A stretch of 48,915 nt of DNA from Escherichia coli (GTDB taxonomy: Bacteria; Pseudomonadota; Gammaproteobacteria; Enterobacterales; Enterobacteriaceae). The notes below the pieces were generated by a model that saw only the letters and a program-made list of their open reading frames with translations, did not search any database and had not been told where the DNA came from. This document shows, piece by piece, positions 13,921-14,311 of this stretch (positions are counted from its first letter, which is position 1; every line of letters starts with the position of its first letter). Location of the stretch: NCBI RefSeq assembly GCF_003334385.1, contig NZ_QOWN01000032.1, one strand, 5' to 3'. The position numbers and the translations under genes were made by a program.

Positions 13921-14114
13921 GTTCAGATACAACAAAGCCGGGAATTACCCGGCTTTGTTATGGAATAAGGCGGTGCCTAACTCGACGTTTCGCCCGATGG
14001 TTGATATAGCTACGCTGATATCAGAAGTTGGACGGCAGGCACCTTGTTGTGCGTCATTCGTATTTTATGTAGCACGTCCCGAAGGGGCTGACATAAGTCG
14101 GTGAATGAGCCACT
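13921..14114 (-). ncRNA. glmY: GlmY small RNA (regulator of the glmS / GlmZ circuit)
   Basis: Minus-strand sequence from 14114 reads AGTGGCTCATTCACCGACTTATGTCAGCCCCTTCGGGACGTGC... and ends in the terminator hairpin AAAGCCGGGTAATTCCCGGCTTTGTTGT, matching GlmY as I recall it. Lies between glrK and purL as in K-12. Confidence 0.8.
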
Positions 14115-14125
14115 GGTTACTATTA

Positions 14126-14141
14126 TGCAGTAACTGTGCCA
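14126..14141 (-). promoter_or_regulatory. Sigma54 promoter of glmY (TGGCAC-N5-TTGCA on the minus strand), with an overlapping sigma70-like -10 CATAAT
   Basis: GG and GC elements about 25 and 13 nt upstream of the GlmY 5' end, read from sequence. Confidence 0.7.
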
Positions 14142-14230
14142 ATAAAGAAAATAGTTTGGTAACGTACTGATTATACGTTGCTTTGAGGGGTTTATGTCTC
14201 CTCCGCTGTTTGAATGTAAATCAGCCACTG

Positions 14231-14311
14231 TGTCGCTAAAAAGAGACAACTTAAGATAAACTTATTAGATAATATTAAAATCAATGAGTTAAGTGTCGCC
14301 AGAAAGCGACA
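14231..14311 (-). promoter_or_regulatory. Upstream activator sites for GlrR: TGTCGC-N6-GAGACA (14231-14248) and TGTCGC-N6-GCGACA (14294-14311), with an AT-rich spacer (possible IHF site) between
   Basis: Two inverted repeats of the TGTC-N10-GACA type located 115-200 bp upstream of the glmY start. Confidence 0.6.

Follow-up and report, generated by a model that had tools for sequence, protein, structure and literature searches.

The DNA analysed here is a stretch of 48,915 nucleotides from Escherichia coli (hereafter the window), in which an intergenic gap on the minus strand separates purL from glrK, followed by qseG and glrR (Table 1). Between the purL stop codon (14430) and the TTG start of glrK (13872) there are 557 bp, as had been stated in an earlier note on this DNA, which also held that the gap is not empty; these coordinates and the presence of glmY inside the gap bear this out. 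Read along the minus strand, the elements of the gap appear in the order purL terminator, three TGTC-N10-GACA palindromes, a sigma-54 motif together with the hexamer CATAAT, a transcript start reading AGTGGCTCATTCACC, and a 12-bp hairpin.

Table 1. Coordinates of genes, control elements and open reading frames at the purL-glrK locus (window positions; bracketed and centre positions are relative to the glmY start, +1).
Feature	Position	Strand	Basis or remark
purL terminator	14350..14371		first element of the gap read on the minus strand
GlrR/QseF site ABS1, distal, TGTCtgtaaatcacGACA	14327..14344	.	centre -221.5
GlrR/QseF site ABS2, TGTCgctttctggcGACA	14294..14311	.	centre -188.5
Candidate distal IHF site, exact WATCARNNNNTTR	14279..14291 (-165 to -177)	+	between ABS2 and ABS3
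GlrR/QseF site ABS3, promoter-proximal, TGTCtctttttagcGACA	14231..14248	.	centre -125.5
Candidate proximal IHF site, exact consensus	14160..14172 (-46 to -58)	-	between ABS3 and promoter
Sigma-54 promoter, TGGCACagttaCTGCA	14126..14141	-	sole motif match in the window, 0.10 expected by chance
Sigma-70 -10 hexamer CATAAT, weak promoter	14122..14127 (-13 to -8)	-	read from sequence
glmY primary transcript, 184 nt, +1 at 14114	13931..14114	-	ncRNA glmY b4441 in NC_000913.3, mapped
GlmY core (5' stem-loop and central stem-loop), nt 1-148	13967..14114	-	Rfam RF00128 match
glmY intrinsic terminator hairpin, 12-bp stem, 5-nt loop	13931..13959	-	fold
glrK (qseE), sensor kinase, TTG start	12445..13872	-	annotation of identical K-12 sequence
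qseG (yfhG), lipoprotein	11567..12280	-	annotation, mapped by offset
glrR (qseF), sigma-54-dependent response regulator, activator binding ABS1-3	10243..11577	-	annotation, mapped by offset
Mechanical ORF, 76 aa	13874..14104	+	
Mechanical ORF, 79 aa	14010..14249	-	

The gap has been found to be 100% identical to that of E. coli K-12 MG1655, and all 5426 complete E. coli genomes contain its sequence once. The window aligns to the K-12 record NC_000913.3 starting at 2677227, with one mismatch over the 11 kb compared; it lies at window position 16041 (A here, G in the reference, + strand) and represents a synonymous GCC>GCT change in codon 759 of purL, outside glmY. The window is hence derived from a strain or variant of the K-12 kind and not from the reference record as such. 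In NC_000913.3, the gene neighbours of glmY are purL upstream and glrK, qseG, glrR and glnB downstream. A comparison with the K-12 glmY locus, which the earlier note had proposed as a check, has accordingly returned an identical sequence, with glmY (b4441) annotated on exactly these bases.

The minus strand from 14114 begins AGTGGCTCATTCACC..., and both the strand and the start that had been proposed for the RNA hold. Its length had been put at about 190 nt and has to be corrected to the 184 nt of the curated K-12 record, which is also the length given for GlmY in the literature (PMC4152352). The search with GlmY/GlmZ covariance models that had been suggested as a further check has been positive, since RF00128 (GlmY_tke1) matches with 146 bits (gathering score 33, E = 1.2e-32) over the full model (positions 1-163 of 163). 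This match ends at nt 148, and processed, active GlmY has been reported to have just this length (PMC4152352). A permissive Rfam search of 13800..14500 has returned no family besides RF00128 at E <= 1. The 184-nt RNA is predicted to fold into a 5' stem-loop, a long central stem-loop and a terminator, with a minimum free energy of -64.2 kcal/mol as compared with -44.4 +/- 4.1 kcal/mol for shuffled sequences (z = -4.8). Elsewhere in the window, further Rfam matches above threshold have been observed for RNA elements already known from E. coli or Salmonella: AsrC, antisense of rseC (29780-30611, +, 507 bits), rncO (26783-26997, -, 259 bits), ohsC (23294-23370, +, 107 bits) and ES036/CssrF (37078-37120, -, 50 bits).

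Relative to +1 at 14114, the sigma-54 motif carries GG at -26/-25 and GC at -14/-13. Its sequence, TGGCAC-N5-CTGCA, is one base off the consensus TGGCAC-N5-TTGCA; the promoter had thus been correctly recognised in the earlier note, but with TTGCA in place of the CTGCA that is present. A sigma-54 ChIP-seq site in K-12, assigned to glmY, is the identical 17-mer TTGGCACAGTTACTGCA (PMC4591121), and up-regulation of glmY by sigma-54 via GlrR has been reported (PMC4591121, PMC3045617). Of the 103 related loci whose upstream sequence was long enough for promoter-region counts, 102 have the sigma-54 motif at -27 to -25. The sigma-70-like -10 element that had been described as overlapping this promoter is indeed there: the hexamer CATAAT overlaps the -12 element and is present in 62 of the 103 loci. 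It has been characterised as the -10 of an overlapping sigma-70 promoter that is conserved in a subset of genera only (PMC3045617). The same sigma-54/sigma-70 promoter, the GlrR sites and the dependence on IHF have been described previously (PMC3045617, PMC6075780). Two simple scans of 13700..14600 have each missed one glmY element. The sigma-70 scan has not flagged the weak glmY promoter, because its -35 element is poor, and has found one unrelated promoter-like site, while the terminator scan has found the purL terminator and not the glmY hairpin, because the extension of the stem partly absorbs the U-tract; neither miss has been counted against the respective feature.

Upstream of the promoter, exact TGTC-N10-GACA palindromes occur only three times in the 48.9 kb of the window (0.58 expected), and all three are located within 114 bp. 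The earlier note had listed two of them, both of which are correct, and had missed the third (ABS1), which is positioned outside the interval it considered. The three putative GlrR sites span -117 to -230, more than 100 bp upstream of the start. GlrR has been shown to bind three TGTCN10GACA motifs, of which ABS2 and ABS3 are essential, and the less conserved ABS1 is dispensable (PMC3045617). All three sites, with at most one mismatch each, have been found in 93 of the 103 related loci at nearly fixed positions. The IHF consensus WATCARNNNNTTR is matched exactly at five places in the window, and two of these flank ABS3, where two IHF-like sites have been reported, the distal one being essential (PMC3045617); judged by position, the two matches probably are the published IHF sites. 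A candidate IHF match is thus situated between the activator sites and the sigma-54 promoter, in what appears to be an enhancer-type layout.

The conservation of the locus has been followed by a scan with a 20-nt GlmY motif, in which each species was represented by a single genome and 120 loci were returned. About 105 of these belong to Enterobacterales and have purL upstream and/or glrK downstream, and nearly all of them have kept the order purL-glmY-glrK, in agreement with the report that glmY invariably lies upstream of glrK-yfhG-glrR (PMC3045617). The remaining loci are Serratia GlmZ genes or chance matches in unrelated phyla; the latter amount to about 10 of the 120, outside Enterobacterales (Microbacterium, Sphingomonadales), and the two that were tested gave no match to a GlmY or GlmZ model. 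Related loci have been anchored by alignment, a strict regular expression for the 5' end having missed 30 of them. For the GlmY core in 35 non-redundant species, 88.5% of the cells fall into standard pairs as compared with 31-43% when the partners are slid, a control that favours the tested structure, since this comes from E. coli itself. Both partners have changed in 14 core pairs, and none of 500 shuffles attains the covariation score; several core stems are invariant across species and hence uninformative on pairing. RNAalifold on a MAFFT alignment has recovered the outer stems and, because of indels, not the apical hairpins, and therefore the E. coli fold has been projected onto the other sequences and the pairs counted there. 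The terminator, examined across 37 Enterobacteriaceae, has 98.6% of its cells paired, with compensatory changes at 7 of 12 pairs (for example GCCGGG/CCCGGC vs GGCAGGG/CCCTGCC). At the level of sequence comparison, the compensatory base changes support the predicted stems of GlmY, both in the core and in the terminator.

Several of the related loci deviate in the region between purL and glmY. In the metagenome-assembled genome of Enterobacteriaceae bacterium UBA3516 (DFPL01000305.1; L070:1042-7687), the purL-glmY spacer measures about 7 kb as compared with the usual 240-460 bp, and its three genes match the PADLOC models RT_XIII (634 bits), SWIM_XIII (758 bits) and WGR_XIII (984 bits); they constitute a retron defence system of type XIII, which sits as an insertion between purL and the GlrR sites. 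In Escherichia albertii (L004:8991-9572), the opposite strand has an ORF of 193 aa in the interval from purL to the glmY control region; this ORF shows weak matches to GNAT acetyltransferases, below all curated cut-offs, and is absent from E. coli. Spacers of about 1 kb have also been observed in L009 and L069 (Citrobacter). In Brenneria sp. hezel4-2-4, two scaffolds (L078 and L079) each show the 3' end of purL followed by the glmY motif, both with a spacer of 294 bp, and the pair could be a duplicated region or stem from a redundant or mixed assembly.

At its 3' end, the RNA closes with the hairpin AACAAAGCCGGG-uaauu-CCCGGCUUUGUU, the U-rich tail of which is partly within the stem; the strong terminator that the earlier note had placed at the RNA end is thus confirmed as a 12-bp hairpin ending at 13931. 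This hairpin bears on the question of whether glmY could be a leader RNA, processed from the 5' end of a glmY-glrK-qseG-glrR operon transcript, and not an independent gene. The distance from the glmY 3' end to the start of glrK is only 58 nt (13873-13930) on the same strand, and in Proteus mirabilis glmY and the three downstream genes have been reported to be co-transcribed (PMC8745638). However, the hairpin that closes glmY is conserved and covarying, K-12 qseEGF has its own sigma-70 promoter, the start site of which precedes qseE by 25 bp, and in K-12 read-through from glmY is described as virtually absent (PMC6075780). On the basis of the separate promoter and the negligible read-through reported there, we have rejected a leader role in K-12 and regard it as highly improbable for the locus analysed here. 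An EHEC paper in which glmY-qseE co-transcription was looked for has contained nothing useful on this point (PMC3903284). The published qseEGF start maps near 13897, with TAGCAT at -12 to -7, and the -35 region of this promoter would be expected to overlap the tail of the glmY terminator. Regarding the downstream genes, the earlier note had described glrK and glrR as immediately downstream on the same strand, which is correct for the strand and for glrK; qseG lies between glrK and glrR, so that glrR is not immediately adjacent.

Two mechanical ORFs (76 and 79 aa) cover the RNA, and we have considered whether one or both could be real protein-coding genes, instead of the RNA or besides it. Both frames are open, with GTG or TTG starts, whereas the gap is without CDS in the curated K-12 record and in PGAP records, and for both ORFs a comparison with NCBIfam has returned no family at E <= 1. 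Across 96 related loci, the median open length of the corresponding frames is just 32 and 21 aa, the start and stop positions are scattered, and the antisense frame is without any ORF in 31. The 79-aa ORF moreover starts within ABS3 and then crosses the promoter, and nucleotide conservation tracks the RNA stems with compensatory changes. Coding genes have therefore been rejected on the missing family matches and on the unconserved frames in the 96 loci, and a protein-coding function has been judged highly improbable. The assertion of the earlier note that both ORFs cover the RNA and are not coding is in line with these results: the frames are mechanical only, unconserved and without a family, and both are almost certainly non-coding. 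A related proposal is that GlmY acts as a dual-function RNA through translation of a short frame within the gene or overlapping it, such as a portion of the 79-aa frame or some smaller ORF, or that an antisense regulatory transcript is made; we give this very little credence as well, although the ORF tests have established a lack of conservation for the long ORFs only, and a very short peptide specific to E. coli would be outside their reach.

A reading of the RNA as its paralogue GlmZ, or as a decayed copy, in place of a functional GlmY has a practically negligible probability: GlmY and GlmZ form one Rfam clan (CL00011) and have some sequence of the central stem-loop in common, and the 20-nt GlmY motif is also present in Serratia GlmZ, but in clan competition the GlmY model has been kept and the overlapping lower-scoring clan match dropped, the purL/glrK synteny is specific for glmY, and no base differs from the K-12 glmY on which the experiments have been done. 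The rejection of GlmZ is based on the higher score of the GlmY model within the clan, whereas the second copies in Serratia score as GlmZ. The Serratia spp. GlmZ genes carrying the motif (RF00083, 172-175 bits) have been located at L028:954-1171, L051:13520-13738 and L117:1603-1821, and in L028 and L117 the gene adjoins tRNA and RtT repeat arrays. As the motif is common to GlmY and Serratia GlmZ, the central stem-loops of the two RNAs are more alike there than in E. coli.

We therefore consider it virtually certain that the interval represents the glmY gene of E. coli K-12 together with its complete control region, on the basis of the identity with K-12, the covariance-model match, the positions of all motifs, and the conservation and covariation. 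There is nothing substantive that speaks against GlmY. The interpretation of the earlier note as GlmY with a sigma-54 promoter and GlrR sites is supported by RF00128, by the K-12 identity and by the published promoter data, and the corrections made above (CTGCA, the third GlrR site, 184 nt and qseG in between) leave it unchanged.

For promoter use, the dependence on GlrR and IHF, processing and the RapZ/GlmZ/glmS mechanism, we rely on the literature, according to which the locus would operate as follows. Transcription of glmY would start at 14114 on the minus strand, from overlapping sigma-54 and weak sigma-70 promoters with a common start site. Phosphorylated GlrR (QseF) would activate the sigma-54 promoter while bound to the three TGTC-N10-GACA sites 117-230 bp upstream, with IHF bending the DNA to bring GlrR to the polymerase. 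The 184-nt transcript would stop at the intrinsic terminator and would then be trimmed to about 148 nt. Trimmed GlmY would not base-pair with a target; by mimicking its homologue GlmZ, it would sequester the adaptor protein RapZ, and GlmZ would escape cleavage by RNase E, pair with glmS mRNA and give rise to more glucosamine-6-phosphate synthase. Trimming of the 184-nt GlmY to 148 nt, sequestration of RapZ, sparing of GlmZ from RNase E and increased GlmS synthesis have all been described (PMC4152352). The feedback loop would be closed by GlcN6P-free RapZ, which would stimulate QseE/QseF; activation of glmY transcription along this route has been reported, and the binding of GlmY to RapZ damps the loop (PMC7073468).

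As compared with the type example, GlmY of K-12 (SroF/Tke1; RF00128; b4441), the locus analysed here shows no difference in any point tested: the sequence is 100% identical, and the coordinates and structure, the promoter with its GlrR and IHF sites, and the synteny are the same. The homologous sRNA GlmZ (SraJ; RF00083) belongs to the same clan and has a similar 5' and central stem-loop, and RapZ binds both RNAs. In species of the Yersinia/Serratia type, glmZ too is preceded by a sigma-54 promoter and three GlrR sites (PMC3045617), whereas E. coli glmZ, unlike glmY, is equipped with a sigma-70 promoter only. CsrB and CsrC likewise titrate an RNA-binding protein (CsrA) without base-pairing, a comparison drawn in PMC4152352; they have no homology to GlmY in sequence or structure, and decoys of this type carry many short binding motifs, whereas GlmY mimics one specific sRNA substrate.

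The locus also illustrates how such a gene is lost in annotation. In the 12 PGAP-annotated complete E. coli genomes sampled, including a re-sequenced MG1655, no feature is listed in the purL-qseE gap (12/12), and among the records compared only the curated NC_000913.3 lists glmY; the expectation that a protein-only annotation would miss the gene has thus been borne out by the sampled PGAP genomes. The mechanical ORF track, in turn, puts two spurious ORFs where the PGAP annotation leaves the gap empty. The glmY system found here is the type example, known and well characterised in K-12, and no new biology is added to it: GlmY, its promoters, GlrK/GlrR (QseE/QseF) and the RapZ-GlmZ-glmS cascade have all been characterised before. 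The value of the finding is that of a control, in which a non-coding gene and its enhancer-type promoter have been recovered almost exactly from raw sequence.
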